Sequence record: PZ386958.1
Origin: a phage
Length of the DNA: 64,000 nucleotides
Direction: 5' to 3' (one strand)
Shown here piece after piece: positions 11,258-32,261 of the stretch (the stretch's first letter is position 1; each line of letters starts with the position of its first letter). The position numbers and the translations under genes were made by a program. Under the pieces are notes generated by a model. That model saw only the letters and a list, made by a program, of their open reading frames with translations, made no database searches and was not told where the DNA came from.

Positions 11258-16641
<5,384 letters not shown>

Positions 16642-24431: not shown

Positions 24432-24977
24432 TCAAAAGTGTCCTTTTACTTGTGGAGCATAAGTTTCAAAAGTTGCTTTACCATCCTCTGATGGTTTTGA
24501 CTGTACCTTTGTAAATATACGGTTATCATACAACTTTTCAAAGAAGTTTTCAAAAGGTAAATGAACAGTAGCCTCTTCAGTAACTTTATGGAAAACTGTA
24601 TGGAACACTACATCAGCATACGGTAAAGCATTGACAAGAACACCTGCACCACCAATTACAAAGACATCTTCATCAATAGAGCTATCAAGATACTTCAAAA
24701 ATGCTCCAAATGACTCTTTAGTGGCCTTAGCATACATTATCTCATCTTTGTCAAATTCTATGCCTAAATACGGTACAGAGTTTGTTAAGATAAGGTTTGC
24801 ACGTTCTGGTAAAGGTTTACTACCCAGAGTCTTAAAAGTCTCGTTACCCATCACTACTAAGTTGTTTTTAGTGAGTCTCTTAAACTCTTGCATATCCTGT
24901 TTATGTCGAGGCCACGGCATACCAGTTGGAGTACCAAACTCACCGTTTTCACCACTTGCAAATATTAGCTTAATCAT
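24432..24977 (-). CDS. frd: dihydrofolate reductase
   Basis: DHFR N-terminal pattern MIKLIFASGENGEFG ... MPW ... VVMGNETFKTLG; directly upstream of td. Confidence 0.8.
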   Translation of the reverse strand: MIKLIFASGENGEFGTPTGMPWPRHKQDMQEFKRLTKNNLVVMGNETFKTLGSKPLPERANLILTNSVPYLGIEFDKDEIMYAKATKESFGAFLKYLDSSIDEDVFVIGGAGVLVNALPYADVVFHTVFHKVTEEATVHLPFENFFEKLYDNRIFTKVQSKPSEDGKATFETYAPQVKGHF

Positions 24978-25234
24978 TTTGTAAACCCTTTCTTAATGAA
25001 CCAATTGATAACATTCTTCACAGCTTTATTGCTATGGTAGATTAAGTGTGGTGTGGGTTGATATGAACCATAAGCCCAGAAAGCAATGATTTCACTACAC
25101 CCTGTGCACCTCGTACTCTCTTCAGCAATATGACCGTTGACTATTTCACTCACCTCACCTTGTAAGTCTGTACACCCACAATGTGGACAACGGATAGGTG
25201 TTCCATCAGACTCATAGCAGTGTTCAATTTTCAT
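24974..25234 (-). CDS. zinc-ribbon protein (hypothetical)
   Basis: 86 aa with CPHCGC ... CTGC cysteine pairs. Confidence 0.4.
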   Translation of the reverse strand: MKIEHCYESDGTPIRCPHCGCTDLQGEVSEIVNGHIAEESTRCTGCSEIIAFWAYGSYQPTPHLIYHSNKAVKNVINWFIKKGFTK

Positions 25235-25753
25235 CTATTTAACCTCAAAAACTGGCTCAAGAACCAATATAAAGTCTACACAGTCATCTTCTTCATCCAG
25301 AATACCATCAAAGTTCTTAGGAACGAAGTCGAAGAGGCTCATAACAAAGCAGTCAGAAGTAACCCTAATAGTGCCTCCCATATTCTCTACAGTCAACACT
25401 GTACGGCTTTCTTTTACCTCTCTCAGAAGATTACTCACAAAGTCATCTAAGAAGTACTTCATCAGTGACTTAAAACCTTTAGGGTAATCTGTACCAGAGT
25501 ATGTTTCAATCTGAGGCACAAGCTTAACATTTATGCTAGTCTTTGCTAATAAGAATGTGCTAGAGAATATGCTATCAGGTAGCTTGCAAACAATCTTTCC
25601 AGTACCTTCATGTTCAATCTCAACAAAACCAGCTTCATCGCCACATGTAACTATTTTAAAAGATGCTTCATTCTCACACTGTGAAGCCATAAACTTCTTA
25701 AGCATCACTTTAAGGAAATCTGCATGAGCATCTTGTAAGTAGATATCAATCAT
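25235..25753 (-). CDS. hypothetical protein
   Basis: 172 aa ORF, coding density and co-orientation. Confidence 0.4.
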   Translation of the reverse strand: MIDIYLQDAHADFLKVMLKKFMASQCENEASFKIVTCGDEAGFVEIEHEGTGKIVCKLPDSIFSSTFLLAKTSINVKLVPQIETYSGTDYPKGFKSLMKYFLDDFVSNLLREVKESRTVLTVENMGGTIRVTSDCFVMSLFDFVPKNFDGILDEEDDCVDFILVLEPVFEVK

Positions 25754-25766
25754 AGTTAATCACCTA

Positions 25767-26126
25767 TTATGGGAACAGACACTTAATGTCGTCGTTTTTG
25801 AAAACGAAACTTGTGTAGTTGTGACCGTCAACATCCAGCCAAACAGCCTGAACATCTACACCATCAAGATTTTGGTAAAGCTCTTTGATGAAGTGGTCTT
25901 TTACAATCTGACTGCTAGTTGTTTCCAGTTTAATATTCGAGATTGCTGAACCTACAGCCATATAACCCATGACACGTTTCTTCTCAGTATGCTTAATCTT
26001 TCCATCTTTGTAAGCCATAATGAGATTGGAAAGAATTTTTACACCATAATACTTTTCAAGGTGAGTAGGTACACCATAAAAGCCTAATGCGAAATTTTCA
26101 GAGTGGATAATGTTTTCACGTTTCAT
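25767..26126 (-). CDS. hypothetical protein
   Basis: 119 aa ORF. Confidence 0.4.
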   Translation of the reverse strand: MKRENIIHSENFALGFYGVPTHLEKYYGVKILSNLIMAYKDGKIKHTEKKRVMGYMAVGSAISNIKLETTSSQIVKDHFIKELYQNLDGVDVQAVWLDVDGHNYTSFVFKNDDIKCLFP

Positions 26127-26127
26127 A

Positions 26128-26457
26128 TTAATCTGCCAACCTTAAATTGAAATTAACACCAAATTTTTCACATACTGCCAACATATACTCAAGGGAAACA
26201 TTCCCAGTAAGGTGGATTATGTTGGATACACGAGCCTGAGAGATACCACAAATTTTAGCAACTTGCTCTTGAGAAAGACCTCTGGATTTAATCTCTCTCT
26301 TAAAACGATGTGCAACGAAATCTCTCATTTCGTCTACATCCATTGGACAAATATAACTCTCCATTTCATCCTCTCTATCAGCCTCCCAATCATCTTGTGG
26401 GGCATAAGGGTCAAAAACCTCATTCATCTTTCTTCTTCCGTTTGCGTGAAGTGTCAA
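26128..26457 (-). CDS. HTH (XRE-like) DNA-binding protein
   Basis: LSQEQVAKICGISQARVSNIIHLTGNVSLEYMLAVCEKFG matches a helix-turn-helix of the XRE/Cro type. Confidence 0.55.
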   Translation of the reverse strand: MTLHANGRRKMNEVFDPYAPQDDWEADREDEMESYICPMDVDEMRDFVAHRFKREIKSRGLSQEQVAKICGISQARVSNIIHLTGNVSLEYMLAVCEKFGVNFNLRLAD

Positions 26458-26632
26458 TCAACGAATCTATGTTTGTAGCCCTAACCTTTTCACGTTCATC
26501 GTTAAGATAATCATCAAGAGCCTTTTCAATCTGTGAATCATCTTGACAGATAACTGTAAAGACTGTAAAGCCATCTGTATCGTCAATTATCTTACCATAA
26601 CCGCTTCTGGGATGTAACTTTTTAAGAGCCAT
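26420..26632 (-). CDS. hypothetical protein
   Basis: 70 aa ORF overlapping the HTH gene start, basic C-terminus. Confidence 0.3.
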   Translation of the reverse strand: MALKKLHPRSGYGKIIDDTDGFTVFTVICQDDSQIEKALDDYLNDEREKVRATNIDSLIDTSRKRKKKDE

Positions 26633-26633
26633 A

Positions 26634-27017
26634 TCAAATACCTGTGCAGCTTCTGTTTTCTAAGAAATACTCAACACCATACATAGCTTTTTGCATCAAA
26701 TCTTCTTTAAACTGGATACGGTGGTTGAGCATCGCCTGTACATCAATATCATCATGGTGCTTCTCTTTAATGTTTGCAGATTGCAGGAAATACTCTGCAA
26801 GAACACGATACTGATAGTCAGTTACCTTATCAGTCATCTCTGTTAAAGACTCTTCAGAGATTGGTTTAAGTAACTCACCATTAGTCAAAGCAACACCTTT
26901 AACAATCTGGCAAGTGTCTTTTGGAACACCTGATAAGTCCACATTTGGAAGTTCTGTTGCATTGACTGGTAAATTCATTGCCATAACCATTGCAGCAGCT
27001 AATAAAGTCTTTTTCAT
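26634..27017 (-). CDS. secreted/periplasmic protein with signal peptide (hypothetical)
   Basis: N-terminal MKKTLLAAAMVMAMNLPVNA signal-peptide-like segment; preceded by a long structured leader. Confidence 0.45.
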   Translation of the reverse strand: MKKTLLAAAMVMAMNLPVNATELPNVDLSGVPKDTCQIVKGVALTNGELLKPISEESLTEMTDKVTDYQYRVLAEYFLQSANIKEKHHDDIDVQAMLNHRIQFKEDLMQKAMYGVEYFLENRSCTGI

Positions 27018-27061
27018 AATGACCTCAAAGTTATATTAAATTTTGTATTACATTGAGTATA

Positions 27062-27090
27062 AAAATAAGCTATAACACCTGACTTGTCAA
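27062..27090 (-). promoter_or_regulatory. sigma70-like promoter (TTGACA-17-TATTTT) on minus strand
   Basis: Reverse complement reads TTGACA AGTCAGGTGTTATAGCT TATTTT. Confidence 0.4.
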
Positions 27091-27196
27091 CAGATTTTAT
27101 AGCTTATTTGGCAGATTTTTTATAAGGCTACTGCCACCCTTCCATACCAGACCACACCATGCAAAACCAGACTTCACATCACCCGACCGTGCAATA

Positions 27197-27235
27197 CATC
27201 ACTTAAAAACCCTCTTAGAAGACTCTTAAGTGATG
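27197..27235. promoter_or_regulatory. perfect 10-bp inverted repeat (CATCACTTAA N19 TTAAGTGATG), operator or RNA stem candidate
   Basis: Exact reverse-complementary arms at 27197-27206 and 27226-27235. Confidence 0.4.
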
Positions 27236-27236
27236 C

Positions 27237-27278
27237 TGGTGAGTACCCGTTGGTTTATGCTGCTCAGTATACTCACCA
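27237..27278 (-). other. stem-loop (9-bp stem TGGTGAGTA / TACTCACCA, 24-nt loop)
   Basis: Perfect complementarity between 27237-27245 and 27270-27278, downstream of the ligase stop on the minus strand; no U-run, so not called a terminator. Confidence 0.35.
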
Positions 27279-27293
27279 AATTTTCTATGTCAA
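27266..27293 (-). promoter_or_regulatory. sigma70-like promoter (TTGACA-16-TATACT) on minus strand
   Basis: Reverse complement reads TTGACA TAGAAAATTTGGTGAG TATACT. Confidence 0.45.
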
Positions 27294-27299
27294 CAACTT

Positions 27300-29037: not shown

Positions 29038-29098
29038 AAGCCCTCCTATACAAGATATAGTATAAGGTACTCTTCCATGAGCACCTTGTCAATACTAA

Positions 29099-29655
29099 TT
29101 AGTGTACCTCATACCAGCTTTTACCAACCTTACCAGTACCTGTAACAAGTGTTTCTTTCTTAAGACCTAAGTTCTTAGAAGCTTGTCCATAATACCAGTC
29201 AGTAACTGCTTTCACTTCTGCCGTCATACTTTCTGGACATTCCCAACTCGTCTCGTCGTGATAGGAGCACAATAAACGAGCACCTATAGCTGGCTTGCGA
29301 CCGTTCAACTTCATCAAACCTTCGTCAATCATACGACGGCAAGCAAGGTTAATTGCTTCATTCTGAACCTGTGCTTCCGAACTCATCAGGAGGTAGTTCA
29401 GTAGTTTATGTGGAGATTTGCACCATATCCATGCTCCAGCGACCCTGATATAACCACCTTTAGCAATTGAAGAGTTCTTCCCGAAAACCTCTTCCAGAGC
29501 CTTTTTAGACGCCTTAAAATCGGCTTCTAAGCTATCAAGTAACTTCTTAATCTTTGGCAGACGCATATAGTAAGTTTGTTTAGTCAATGCACCTTCTTCC
29601 GTAGATGATGCCTTGATAGTTTTTGCAAACTTCTCGTCACCTGCACCGAACAATA
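29099..29655 (-). CDS. DNA polymerase (family A), exon 2
   Basis: Begins with TA completing a Leu codon; encodes LFGAGDEKFAK (distal half of motif B) and the motif C-like HDE (LLCSYHDETSWE); reading frame differs from exon 1. Confidence 0.75.
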
Positions 29656-29923
29656 CATCTGGTCAATACACTCGCAAGGTGTACCAGTTCTCTTATGAAC
29701 TTCTCCGCATTTCTACGGAGTGTCGGACTATATCACGTAGTAGTAATACTACCGTTGCACTTGGGAATGGTCATTAGCTTACCACCCTACTCTACTCAGT
29801 TCATACATTAAGTATGCTTTTCGATAGTCTCTGAACGTTTCTCTTAAGAGGCTTCGCTGCTGATTACCATATCTTTACAGACTTAGGCTTCCAGCAATTC
29901 ACAACGTTTTACATGCGCCACTG
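29656..29923 (-). ncRNA. group I self-splicing intron (ORF-less, 268 nt) interrupting the DNA polymerase gene
   Basis: 5' exon ends in U; internal guide GCGCAU at intron nt 6-11 pairs with exon AUGCGU (6-bp P1 with U-G at the splice site); P-, Q-, R- and S-like elements AATTGCTGGAA, AATCAGCAGCG, GTTCAGAGACTA, GATATAGTCCGAC in canonical order; terminal G; no ORF. Confidence 0.8.
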
Positions 29924-32066
29924 ACGCATAAATGCCATTTTTGGCTTTCTTACGACCTTTTGTAATCTCGTGGAGAAGTTCCTCATCCTGTGTCTCCCTA
30001 CAACGAACAATATCTTCTTCCTTGTTCAGACCAAAGTAAATACTGTTCAGTGTATGCGCATCAGTCCCTGTGTAGACTTCATAGAGGTCGTTCTCAGCAT
30101 CATAACGAAGATACTTGTCAGTTTCTGGATTAAGATACTTATCGAGATGCTTGCAATAGTATCTGCCATCATCCTGTTTAGTGAACTCTACAAACTCTTT
30201 ACCCTCAGTTACTGCTTTAGTGAACTCTTTATCACCCATAAAGTTACAAAGGAGAACTAGCTGGGCTGAGTTCATATCAACGGAGACTACGTTGGTTCCC
30301 TCCTCACAAATCCAAACCTCCCTCATCGGTGCTCCATAGACAGCAGCACCAGACGGTACGTTTACAATGCCATATTGTGTCATACGTCCAGTTGAAGTAC
30401 CAAACACCATTGCACCAGCACTAAGGCGACCATCAGGACGAATCTGGTTCAACCAACCTTTTTCATCATCCTTTGAGTTCTCAATAGTTCTGCGTCGGTG
30501 CATCAAAGTGTAGTATTTAGCAATCTTCTGTCCAAGCTCACCTTCAATCGTATCATAAGATGATTCAGTAAGTTTTGGTGAAGTACGGATTAAGCAAGGC
30601 TCAAGCAAATCTGTGTATTTCTTCACAGACCAGTTATGCTCAATGTACTGTACACCTTCATGTTCAACATAACTCAAACCACACCGCTCAACCATTTCCT
30701 GCCACTTAGGATGTTTTGTAATCATCTTTTTATTGTCTTTGAAACGACAAACTTTGACAGGACGACCATCTGAGTCTTTCTTGTAGTTCCAGTCATCTGG
30801 AATCCAACCAACTGATTTCAAGTAGTCTTTAACAACGGCTACCTGAGTCATACGAGAAACTTCAAACTCAATTGGTGTATATGGTGCATCAATCAAACCT
30901 GTGTAGCGACTTGACTCAAGTTCAAAGTGGTTAACAACGTGGCTGTTATAGTACTTCACAGTCTTGACTGTTTTTACTGGTTTCCAGTCTTTGCATTTTT
31001 TGCCAATCTTTGCATTCAACTCGTTGCAGATTGCACGAGCATCCTTCATTGCTACAAAGCCTTCCTTGTATTCTTCACCAGTTACAGTGTTGGTTGGCGT
31101 ATAGCAATTCCTTTTTTCAATGTTAAAAATCTTTGTAGTTGGCTTACCAAATGGCTTGATTTCATATGTCTGCATCTCACCGTTACGTACCTGCTGACGA
31201 TACTTTGTCTTAGGGTACTTGGTAATTCTCTTCAGTCCATCTGCGTGACCAAATGCTTCAACATACTCATTCCAAGCTTTTGCAAACTCTTCTCCAGTAA
31301 CTTTACCTTTGGTCTTAATAGTTGGAGGTAGATGTGGTTCAACCTCTGAAGCAAGCTCATTAGTCAACTTGTCAAGTTCCTTTACATGGAACTCCATAAG
31401 CTCTTTATCAGCTTTCCAACCATTGATAGCTTGTTGACTCATCCAGAAAGATGTTTCTTTAGCTCGCATGTAGGTTTCATAAGTGTCTATGCCACACTTC
31501 TTAAGCTTGAGATACTCGTTATCAAGTGCCCGTTTAGTTTTGGCGTTAATACGGATATCTTCTACAACACGAGTGAAGATTTCTGCATTCCACACACCCC
31601 AATGCTCAATCTCTGGCTTACGAACACCAACACGAGCACCCCATGCAGCCAAGCCATGAGCACCTTTATAACCCTTTGGAGTTGGTCTATCCATCCACTG
31701 AACACGAGACTGAATAAGAGAATCCTGAAAGAAATTACTCCACGGCTTACATTTTGGATTATCAAAGTTCCATAAATCAGGTGCAATGTGATTGAAAACC
31801 CACCAGTCATAGCCGAGACCATTATGGATGCAAAGACGTTTTGCCTTTAACGCAAATTCAACACCTTCACGTAAGCCGCCCTTGATGTACTTGGTATACT
31901 TGTGACCGAGGATAGGCTCGTCTGTAAAGACCCATACAGGCGGCTCTTCATCGTCAGATTTATAATCTGCGAAAGCCATTACGTGCACTTTAGTGAACTC
32001 AAGGAGTAAACCATCAGTTTCTGTATCACCAACCAAATGTAAGTTTTTAAAATCTACGTTTTCCAT
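29924..32066 (-). CDS. DNA polymerase (family A, with 3'-5' exonuclease), exon 1
   Basis: Exo I motif DTETDGL; motif A VSVDMNSAQL; proximal motif B RKKAKNGIYA; start taken as the ATG at 32066 (MENVDF) preceded by GAGGGAG. Confidence 0.8.
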
Positions 32067-32261
32067 TTTTACTCCCTCTAAAATCATTAACCACATACAT
32101 TACTGCAAAAAATTATAAAAAGCAAGTTGACAATGTACTTGACAAGGTGTTAATCTTTGCGAAGTGGGTTTTTACTTAAAAGGTTACTTAACAGTTTAAC
32201 TATACAGATACTTTAAAACTCTTAAAAGATTATTTAATAGCTTTTAAAAAGCTTTAAAGTA

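Follow-up and report, generated by a model that had tools for sequence, protein, structure and literature searches.

What, if anything, is encoded in the 282 nt (27018–27299) between the DNA ligase gene and a 127-aa ORF of the Felixounavirus examined here? The original prediction, made from the sequence alone, read this gap as the structured leader of a regulated accessory cassette, serving for example superinfection exclusion or host takeover. We analyzed it within its window, that is, the whole 64,000-nt stretch of record PZ386958.1, whose closest complete relative is Escherichia phage GEP101 (95.8% identity). In the Ounavirinae records examined, the gap is labelled "promoter/terminator/repeat_region"; it is, with near certainty, a vrRNA gene that stands alone ("solo") and belongs to type II VIPR, and can be re-annotated accordingly.

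The vrRNA unit and its locus

VIPR is a minimal, RNA-guided DNA-silencing system of phages, first described in 2026, that may predate CRISPR (bioRxiv 10.64898/2026.04.26.720920, 10.64898/2026.04.26.720927). According to the available text of these 2026 preprints, the small RAMP protein Vipr forms a polymer along the GGY motifs of an RNA built of pentamer repeats, with one protomer on each, thereby presenting the NN dinucleotides; these pair with double-stranded DNA, every third base being skipped, and the bound complex blocks transcription. The RNA itself, vrRNA, is described there as 9–16 YNNGG repeats followed by a pseudoknot tail and read in a one-nucleotide-skip code (bioRxiv 10.64898/2026.04.26.720920). 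A complete system is defined by a Vipr RAMP gene (~20 kDa, with G-loop and thumb) and a vipr-accessory gene (vap1 in type II), and a vrRNA target by an NN match of at least 80% under the one-nucleotide-skip rule, with the skips on codon wobble positions. A vrRNA is further expected to lie in intergenic DNA beside a vipr gene, unlike the unit in the window, and to occur as a ~100-nt small RNA that co-purifies with Vipr.

As listed in Table 1, one complete vrRNA module lies between two promoter sites, P1 and P2, and consists of a G-U-rich hairpin, ten NN-GGY pentamers and a covarying 3′ pseudoknot tail.

Table 1. Elements of the ligase-to-ORF gap and of the genes downstream of it (positions in the 64-kb window)
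Feature	Position	Strand	Description
P1, sigma70-type promoter (predicted)	27266..27293	-	TTGACA-16-TATACT, 11/12
9-bp inverted repeat	27237..27278 (arms 27237-45/27270-78)	-	TGGTGAGTA N24 TACTCACCA
Hairpin A (class A1)	27197..27235	-	17-19-bp RNA stem, several G-U pairs
Variable guide region	27146..27195	-	ten NN-GGY pentamers: ATTGC ACGGT CGGGT GATGT GAAGT CTGGT TTTGC ATGGT GTGGT CTGGT; NN code AT AC CG GA GA CT TT AT GT CT
Constant 3′ tail (class T4)	27108..27145	-	H-type pseudoknot; S1 AAGG/CCTT, S2 GGCAG/CTGCC, A-rich loop 3
Inverted repeat I1	27056..27109 (13-bp perfect arms 27063-27109)	-	17 pairs in minimum-energy fold
P2, sigma70-type promoter (predicted)	27062..27090	-	TTGACA-17-TATTTT, 10/12
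ORF, 127 aa	26634-27017	-	phrog_4332
ORF, 70 aa	26420-26632	-	phrog 4473
ORF, 99 aa	26128-26427	-	XRE-type HTH; ATG as used by annotated relatives
ORF, 119 aa	25767-26126	-	phrog 4116
ORF, 172 aa	25235-25753	-	phrog 4422
ORF, 86 aa	24974-25234	-	phrog 2993

The two sigma70-like sites claimed for the minus strand of the gap were both recovered. A pair of sites scoring at least 10/12 was absent from all 500-fold shuffles of the gap, and a single 11/12 site appeared in only 0.8% of them. P1 is the sole match of at least 11/12 on the minus strand of the whole window, with a predicted start site near 27258–27260; the same hexamers and spacer are also found upstream of vrRNA1 of phage SUSP1, heading the SUSP1 VIPR locus, and P1 would drive the vrRNA unit.

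Both inverted repeats of the original prediction are real (perfect arms of at least 9 bp occurred in 4.8% of the gap shuffles, and of at least 10 bp in 1.6%). The 9-bp repeat, whose arms are invariant and whose loops are variable across relatives, cannot lie wholly inside a P1 transcript, because its 5′ arm overlaps the −10 element of P1. The perfect 10-bp repeat forms the base of hairpin A, a structure that precedes every vrRNA array. Six of the 17 consensus pairs of this hairpin show compensatory changes between classes A1 and A2, and its invariant G-U and U-G pairs are compatible with a minus-strand RNA only. Hairpin A may be a processing site or the 5′ boundary of the RNA.

The pentamer array, the pseudoknot and the 13-bp repeat had been overlooked in the first reading of the sequence. 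The array is the only period-5 array of its type in the 64 kb; six of its ten units read GGY and all ten read NGY. In the other four, a point against the guide reading, T or A replaces the first G, the base that Vipr reads through H17 and D177 according to the structural preprint. Internal GGY degeneracy is frequent, in the words of the preprint authors, and the last vrRNA of SUSP1, whose vrRNAs are expressed according to the preprint, is equally degenerate (6/10). The pseudoknot was assessed across 22 tails: nine of its 12 pairs show compensatory change, S1 is paired in 100% of cases, and 90.5% of the tail cells are paired, versus 25–45% in slid controls.

The I1 stem is followed by a U-run (UUUUUAUACU) and was missed by a scan for the G+C-rich terminator consensus because it is AT-rich. 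It is conserved in SUSP1, its loop enclosing the −35 element of P2, and is predicted to be the terminator-like end of the vrRNA unit. P2, whose counterpart is annotated as a promoter in phage ASO1A, would serve the six-gene operon downstream.

Across 25 relatives, the distance between ligase gene and ORF ranges from 273 to 2132 nt. The long forms hold several copies of the module, up to five in one locus, together with 200-aa and 146-aa genes; the profile of the 200-aa protein matched PDB 36pp ("SUSP1 Vipr protein") with an E-value of 1e-79, and the AlphaFold model of Vipr had a pLDDT of 95. In SUSP1 the order of elements is ligase, vrRNA1, vipr, vap1, vrRNA2-4, homologue of the 127-aa ORF, so that the single unit of the window occupies the slot held by vrRNA1-vipr-vap1-vrRNA2-4 in SUSP1 and in ~118 other Ounavirinae records. 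Besides this slot, the two loci share the P1 and P2 elements, near-identical flanks, hairpin A, GGY/NN pentamers with ten variable units, and the T4 tail (in SUSP1, on the last vrRNA). They differ in that SUSP1 carries vipr and vap1 in cis with four vrRNAs, whereas the window has one vrRNA alone.

Neither the gap nor the long loci of relatives matched any Rfam family above noise; ARAGORN found neither tRNA nor tmRNA, and BLAST found no second copy of the gap elsewhere in the window. Given that the linked 200-aa protein is Vipr, several readings of the period-5 GGT array were dropped: a T4-like promoter-stem-loop cassette, a site for a TRAP-like ring protein, an R-loop replication origin, Chi-like or ops-like sites, primase sites, G-quadruplexes and an opposite-strand rut site.

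Neither of the protein genes that define a complete system was found in the window. For vipr, tblastn and a family HMM run on the six-frame translation gave no match at E ≤ 10 beyond noise; for vap1, the best tblastn E-value was 0.65. Both genes are also missing from the complete 88-kb genome of GEP101, whose only pentamer array lies at the corresponding locus. Consequently, the window RNA would be unable to act alone. Among Felix O1-like phage records, ~118 of ~260 carry vipr, meaning that about half are without the Vipr protein, and every vipr-less locus fetched keeps one or two guide RNAs at the same place, each behind a predicted promoter. All 12 vipr-less loci in the first set of loci have kept an intact tail and hairpin.

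Guide matches and the arms-race signature in vipr

Read under the one-nucleotide-skip rule, the window guide matches nt 484–512 of vipr from vipr+ relatives at 19 of 20 NN positions, in frame, with all the skipped bases at codon position 3, the wobble position. The NN code thereby spells the vipr codons ITREELLMVL, and the predicted target-site sequence is ATTACCCGAGAGGAACTCCTGATGGTTCT. That it stays short of perfect (19/20) in the set of 22 vipr alleles used counts against this target; permuted window guides reached at most 17/20 on vipr (p ≤ 1/2001). Neither the window nor GEP101 holds a comparable target, the best score there being 15/20 versus a maximum of 16 for permuted guides.

The same gene is matched by most of the solo guides of vipr-less relatives. 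Nine of 12 unique guides scored at least 0.85 on vipr, at four sites and on both strands; among them, the guides of Felix O1, Seyj1-1, BPS17L1 and phiWec174 matched at 20/20 each, that of EC6 at 16/16, those of JH2 and SP3 at 17/18 and that of RPN213 at 19/22. Lower values were obtained for ASO1A (0.61), the L010 group (0.83) and GEP101 (0.79), but the ten core NNs of the GEP101 guide still matched at 19/20. In contrast, none of the 18 T4-tailed guides from vipr+ loci reached 0.85 (maximum 0.70; Fisher p = 1.5e-5 versus the solo guides), and no array from a vipr+ locus had its best match of at least 0.85 on vipr. Guides from vipr-less loci with two modules do not match vipr.

An exact scan with the 20-base gapped pattern of the window gave no match in IMG/VR or GTDB genomes, a result that is uninformative because a control, the VpaE1 guide, also gave none in IMG/VR. 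Further scans with the T4 tail led back to the IMG/VR contigs already analyzed and to nine contigs from metagenomes, only one of them vipr-less. In 5,426 E. coli genomes, BLAST found no counterpart of the conserved vrRNA parts and so did not lead to the satellites of the preprint. GGY content was 0.72 in vipr-less and 0.77 in vipr+ loci, a gap too small to discriminate by GGY decay.

The guides and their targets vary together. The CG/AA variants of the guides go with CGA/AAA alleles of vipr and the TT/CT variants with TTG/CTG alleles, and codon positions 1 and 2 of vipr are variable more often within the guide windows (11/93) than outside them (7/307; p = 4.7e-4). Among the changes at guide-read positions are synonymous first-position switches, between CGA and AGA for Arg and between CTG and TTG for Leu, that are not masked by the wobble skip.

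Competing readings and related systems

The features that the original prediction described are all present at the positions given. Six minus-strand ORFs are present at 24974–27017; the 99-aa protein matches Pfam HTH_3 (PF01381; E = 2.8e-10, 40.5 bits against a cut-off of 23), in keeping with an XRE-like HTH protein; and the 127-aa protein has an N-terminus (MKKTLLAAAMVMAMNLPVNA/TE, parsed as MKK / TLLAAAMVMAM / NLPVNA-TE) that is Sec-signal-like by inspection and hydropathy, with the hydropathy peak at residues 3–14. Pfam and PHROGs assigned no function to the other five ORFs, nor to vipr or vap1. The six ORFs are syntenic in both the vipr-less GEP101 and the vipr+ SUSP1 and, being there with or without the VIPR cassette, they lie outside the vrRNA module.

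This arrangement bears on the idea that the gap is a regulated leader or operator through which the HTH protein controls a secreted effector of superinfection exclusion or host takeover. The HTH_3 domain is genuine, a signal-like N-terminus is present, P2 is predicted to drive the operon, and the 13-bp repeat overlaps P2. However, the two inverted repeats originally cited lie upstream of P2, and one of them is the stem of hairpin A, with G-U pairs and RNA-type covariation, in a module that, in relatives, occurs up to five times per locus and flanks vipr-vap1. Nothing links the 99-aa protein to the repeats, P1 and P2 share no palindromic half-sites beyond the promoter hexamers, and the operon keeps its place whether or not a VIPR cassette is next to it. 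We therefore consider the operator reading very improbable. What survives of the "structured leader" is a structured minus-strand RNA, which is a self-contained vrRNA module and not the leader of the secreted-protein gene; similarly, the notion of an accessory cassette for superinfection exclusion holds loosely, as inter-phage conflict, but the ORFs are not part of the module.

If the gap is a vrRNA gene, it might still be a non-functional relic: vipr, vap1 and the rest of the vrRNAs would have been lost by recombination between modules, so that one hybrid module remained, transcribed and inert. Such an inter-repeat deletion would leave flanks like those of the gap, which agree with the extremities of long loci, 5′ as well as 3′, at up to 100%, and the absence of vipr from both the window and GEP101 fits, as does the canonical GGY in only six of ten repeats. 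A relic should, however, carry a guide of the vipr+ type, and these do not match vipr (0 of 18 T4-tailed arrays), whereas the solo guides do so repeatedly and at four sites. The tracking of vipr alleles by guide variants and the intact tails and hairpins of vipr-less loci also argue against decay, and we regard this explanation as unlikely. Lower still we rate the possibility that the RNA is purely a decoy, titrating a rival's Vipr at about one protomer per repeat irrespective of the NN code. Its promoter is predicted to be strong, its handle is common to the rivals' own vrRNAs, and one Vipr protomer does bind per repeat; yet the decoy would leave unexplained the 19–20/20 matches to vipr in wobble phase, their recurrence at four sites and the co-variation of guides with alleles. 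A sponge effect could well exist in addition to guiding.

Viruses that own only the RNA half of such a system are known in other families. Virus-borne mini-CRISPR arrays use host Cas proteins against rival viruses, and Racrs (RNA anti-CRISPRs) are decoys devoid of guide function; as is proposed for the window RNA, these and solitary repeat units exploit or sequester an effector encoded by another, in conflicts among viruses or between virus and host. They belong to a different RNA and protein family, and the window RNA, unlike them, would turn the borrowed effector on the effector's own gene. That last feature recalls long-form tracrRNA, which acts at the cas9 promoter, and the CreR-type Cas-regulating RNAs, in which a handle RNA directs the effector to repress its own gene transcriptionally. 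There, the owner of the system encodes the RNA in cis, for autoregulation, whereas the window RNA is encoded by a competitor that has no system; conversely, vipr+ phages, unlike such owners, have no vipr-directed guide among their T4-tailed ones. TRAP, which binds 11 (G/U)AG triplets at 5–6-nt spacing, resembles Vipr in that a protein oligomer reads a short motif about every five nucleotides in an otherwise variable RNA. However, its fold is unrelated, it forms a ring instead of a helical filament, its spacers are without a code and DNA is not its target; the analogy was dropped as a working idea upon the PDB 36pp match.

A proposed guide without its effector

We think that the window element is probably a "Trojan" guide, lacking an effector of its own, that loads the Vipr of a co-infecting rival and silences the rival's vipr operon. 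P1 would transcribe a unit of ~195 nt, with predicted ends, comprising hairpin A, the ten NN-GGY repeats, the pseudoknot tail and the terminator-like hairpin. Upon co-infection with a vipr+ relative, this RNA would be loaded in trans by the rival's Vipr; its handle is that of the rival's own last vrRNA. The loaded complex would then sit on the rival's vipr and block its transcription, and probably that of vap1, immediately downstream, as well; each RNA molecule would also titrate some ten or more Vipr protomers.

A repressor of this kind needs the product of the gene that it represses, so it could only dampen expression, not abolish it. A benefit of the guide presupposes, moreover, that vipr+ phages harm their vipr-less relatives. 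Only one candidate guide aimed at a relative was found, matching GEP101 at 21/24 with the skip off the wobble position. We lean, with somewhat less assurance, toward the more general view that vipr-less Felix O1-type phages, including Felix O1 itself, hijack the Vipr of their rivals against vipr, in an arms race played out at the level of sequence.

While the guides of the SUSP1 clade mostly map to a satellite phage, with no self-targeting reported in the available preprint text, the window guide corresponds to vipr itself, with the same wobble-aligned one-nucleotide-skip relation of guide to target. The same text mentions guides against other VIPR systems for a Pseudomonas fulva clade only and is silent on solo guides that lack an effector in phages without vipr; nor does it describe an anti-VIPR mechanism that is natural and made of RNA only, if this is one.

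Most single-guide vipr-less loci aim at the gene, in relatives, for the very protein that they are missing. As a clean natural experiment, they can show how escape mutations are shaped by a code that skips the wobble base. If the hijack model is true, the guide without an effector would represent a new counter-strategy between phages and would give VIPR-based tools an "off switch" whose design already exists in nature.

Identity of the element between the ligase gene and the 127-aa ORF

The 282-bp gap separating the DNA ligase gene from the 127-aa ORF almost certainly encodes a guide RNA of a known kind, a vrRNA of the RNA-guided DNA-silencing system VIPR. The surrounding minus-strand genes, in the order thymidylate synthase, dihydrofolate reductase, six small ORFs, gap and ATP-dependent DNA ligase, are 95.8% identical across 4.1 kb to those of Escherichia phage GEP101, the closest complete relative; identity to some 200 further Felixounavirus records is 90-96%. 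Everything that the original prediction listed here could be found again: the six ORFs, the HTH domain (HTH_3, E 2.8e-10), the signal-peptide-like N-terminus, the 282-nt gap, two sigma70-like promoters (P1 and P2) and both inverted repeats. Its reading of them as a regulated accessory cassette was only loosely right. No connection emerged between the guide RNA and either the HTH protein or the putative secreted protein, and the long hairpin, the array and the pseudoknot within the gap had been missed. In PHROGs, every ORF except the HTH protein fell into families of unknown function. Closely spaced behind P2, the six ORFs make up an operon that is syntenic both in GEP101, a phage devoid of the effector gene vipr, and in the vipr-containing phage SUSP1.

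Features of the gap and of its neighborhood, in minus-strand order within the gap
Feature	Position	Strand	Remarks
Promoter P1		minus	first element of the gap
9-bp inverted repeat	27237-27278		overlaps the P1 -10 element; arms invariant, loop variable among relatives
Hairpin, 39 nt	27197-27235	minus	
Ten NN-GGY pentamers	27146-27195	minus	
H-type pseudoknot	27108-27145	minus	
13-bp perfect-arm inverted repeat	27056-27109	minus	U-run 3' in the minus-strand RNA; P2 -35 element in the loop
Ribosome-binding site and ATG of the 127-aa ORF		minus	last element of the gap
Group I intron (Rfam RF00028)	29703-29986	minus	63.3 bits (gathering score 50), E 1.3e-15
DNA polymerase ORFs split by the intron	29883-32096; 29099-29653		
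Homing-endonuclease gene of GEP101	30795-31328 (GEP101)		downstream of the polymerase fragment; missing from the window at about 29092-29096 (BLAST map)
48-aa ORF of relatives	372-518 (locus L020)		also in L002, L003 and further loci that are longer by about 151 nt past the ligase stop codon

Two promoter sites scoring at least 10/12 never occurred together in 500 shuffles of the gap, and P1 (11/12) is the sole minus-strand site that good in the whole 64-kb window, so the promoters exceed chance expectation. Folding of the gap gave z = -4.1 for the minus strand versus -3.4 for the plus strand; the long hairpin attains its 17-19 pairs in minus-strand RNA only, since G-U pairing accounts for several of them. 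In the repeat enclosing part of P2, a promoter lies within the loop of a terminator-like hairpin, an arrangement kept in SUSP1.

The assignment to VIPR started from IMG/VR, where runs of six GGTNN units occurred in at least 120 unrelated viral contigs; in many of these the arrays were in tandem and of higher order. When the ORFs neighboring the arrays were clustered into families (61 loci), a family of about 200 aa was found on the same strand as the array, no more than 4 kb away and mostly upstream, in 27 loci. This family, which takes in the 200-aa protein of the long Felix-type loci, matches no Pfam domain, and almost all of its roughly 525 database relatives are unnamed or hypothetical; its profile retrieved PDB entry 36pp, "SUSP1 Vipr protein", with E 1e-79.

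According to two 2026 preprints (bioRxiv 10.64898/2026.04.26.720920 and 10.64898/2026.04.26.720927), VIPR combines a RAMP protein of about 20 kDa, Vipr, with vrRNAs in which 9-16 YNNGG repeats precede a pseudoknot tail at the 3' end. Each repeat takes one Vipr protomer, which sequesters GGY. Pairing to double-stranded DNA is through the NN dinucleotides and passes over every third base; transcription of the bound DNA is silenced. As described there, the natural targets lie in competing mobile elements, and the skips fall at codon wobble positions. In SUSP1 (Ounavirinae), the locus comprises vrRNA1, vipr, the accessory gene vap1 and vrRNA2-4, and lies between the ligase gene and a homologue of the 127-aa ORF, exactly the slot of the window's gap. 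The P1 and P2 elements are common to both phages and the flanks are near-identical. The window's module corresponds to the last vrRNA of SUSP1 (hairpin class A1, tail class T4) and is placed directly behind P1.

Arrays of the GGY/NN type were widespread among unrelated viral contigs (loci L027-L146; e.g., L062 2215-3404, L050, L071 and L048). Other higher-order architectures also occurred there: 12 units with the delimiter AAGGAATGGTTTAATGAATTTAATTT, and near-contiguous arrays whose phase shifts by 4 nt at intervals of about 13 repeats. In five loci, the arrays adjoin a second conserved family, which is about 160 aa long (motif FEWND..AGE..R..QAR) and may represent a vap.

A solo vrRNA and its relatives

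Searches of the window by tblastn, for which 27 family members served as queries, and by the family HMM revealed neither vipr nor vap1. Both genes are also absent from all 88,372 bp of GEP101, which is collinear with the window across the entire 64 kb and has one pentamer array, at the corresponding position. With no vipr or vap1 and a single array, the window holds a solo vrRNA. The gene vipr is present in 118 of the roughly 260 Ounavirinae records of the phage collection, at one place per record in all records listed, and that place is this locus wherever the surrounding DNA was examined.

Across 25 related loci, the gap ranges from 273 to 2132 nt. Long forms contain up to five copies of the hairpin-array-pseudoknot module together with a 200-aa and a 146-aa gene, and the flanks of the window's gap match the two ends of these long loci. 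A deletion between repeated modules, or an event in the reverse direction, could account for this. Two modules are retained in six vipr-less loci (L003, L006, L011, L014, L021 and L025; gaps of 420-608 nt), whose guides matched neither vipr nor the other sequences compared. Some relatives also have, between the ligase stop codon and P1, a 48-aa hydrophobic membrane ORF (phrog_22006), absent from the window. In several relatives, the ligase gene itself is split by insertions.

In the arrays of relatives, the NN positions vary freely and GGT/GGC is retained. The pseudoknot occurs in four sequence classes, with two covarying stems and compensatory changes at 9 of 12 pairs; stem S1 was paired in all sequences, and pairing of the structure fell to 25-45% in slid controls. 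The hairpin has two classes, with compensatory changes at 6 of 17 pairs and invariant G-U pairs.

Predicted targets of solo guides

The NN code of the window reads AT AC CG GA GA CT TT AT GT CT. Searching the window and GEP101 with one-nucleotide skips yielded nothing above background (best match 15/20, against a maximum of 16 for permuted guides). In every vipr-containing locus compared, however, the guide matched one homologous site at 17-19/20, on the sense strand of vipr (nt 484-512, codons I-T-R/K-E-E-L-L-M-V-L), with all skipped bases at codon position 3. The match is 19/20 for CGA/CTG alleles, 17/20 for AAA/CTG, and 18/20 for AAA/TTG and for AGA alleles; a predicted allele combining CGA with TTG would be a perfect target. 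Permuted or base-shuffled guides reached at most 17/20, hence p <= 1/2001.

We then compared 22 unique vipr alleles with 37 unique T4-tailed arrays, adding eight vipr-less phages. Nine of the 12 unique single-module guides of vipr-less phages matched vipr at 0.85 or better: those of Felix O1/Si3, Seyj1-1, BPS17L1 and phiWec174/finno at 20/20, the window at 19/20, EC6 at 16/16 (nt 55-77, antisense), JH2 and SP3 at 17/18 (nt 19-44, antisense) and RPN213 at 19/22 (nt 377-408), the last being out of wobble phase and least convincing. The guides of ASO1A (0.61), the L010 group (0.83) and GEP101 (0.79, although 19/20 over its ten core dinucleotides) fell below this value. By contrast, none of 18 T4-tailed guides from vipr-containing loci exceeded 0.70 on vipr (Fisher p = 1.5e-5 versus solo guides), and no array of these loci had its best match, at 0.85 or better, on vipr, in agreement with the absence of self-targeting stated in the preprint.

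Variation among guides and vipr alleles carries the signature of an arms race. At the shared site, the guides vary at two dinucleotides, precisely those at which the alleles of vipr also vary: CG or AA in guides goes with CGA, AGA or AAA in the gene, and TT or CT with TTG or CTG. Wobble differences are invisible to the guides. At the EC6 site, the alleles differ as Ala GCT versus Asn AAC and Leu CTG versus TTG. Over the whole gene, 11 of 93 codon positions 1 and 2 are variable inside guide windows, and beyond these windows the count is 7 of 307 (p = 4.7e-4). The first-position synonymous switches seen in Arg and Leu codons are of the kind that escape from a wobble-skipping reader would be expected to leave under protein constraint.

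A candidate weapon against rivals' effector

These matches suggest a function for the solo vrRNA as a Trojan guide, which we consider somewhat better than an even bet. The RNA would be transcribed from P1 as a precursor with its start near 27258, yielding a predicted product that spans about 27108-27205 on the minus strand. In a cell also holding a vipr-containing relative, the rival's Vipr might assemble on it in trans; the window's tail differs from the rivals' T4 tail by one unpaired base. The resulting filament would sit on the rival's vipr gene and block its transcription, probably along with that of vap1, immediately downstream, and each solo vrRNA would also use up some ten or more Vipr protomers. 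Against this function stand the four non-canonical first-G positions in the window's repeats and the inherently limited reach of a feedback-type repressor. The putative fitness benefit to a vipr-less phage rests, moreover, on presumed harm by vipr-containing phages.

Separately, a vrRNA of a vipr-containing Felix-like contig (L015, classes A2/T3) matched GEP101 at 15216-15250 with 21 of 24 NN bases, in the structural-region gene next after the tape-measure gene; the homologous window site (13966-14000) matched at only 16/24. This match is uncertain, because the skipped bases lie off wobble positions. If real, it would mean that vipr-containing phages aim guides at vipr-less relatives.

The solo element is a variant vrRNA without an effector, apparently aimed at the effector gene of rivals, and is not described in the preprint text available.
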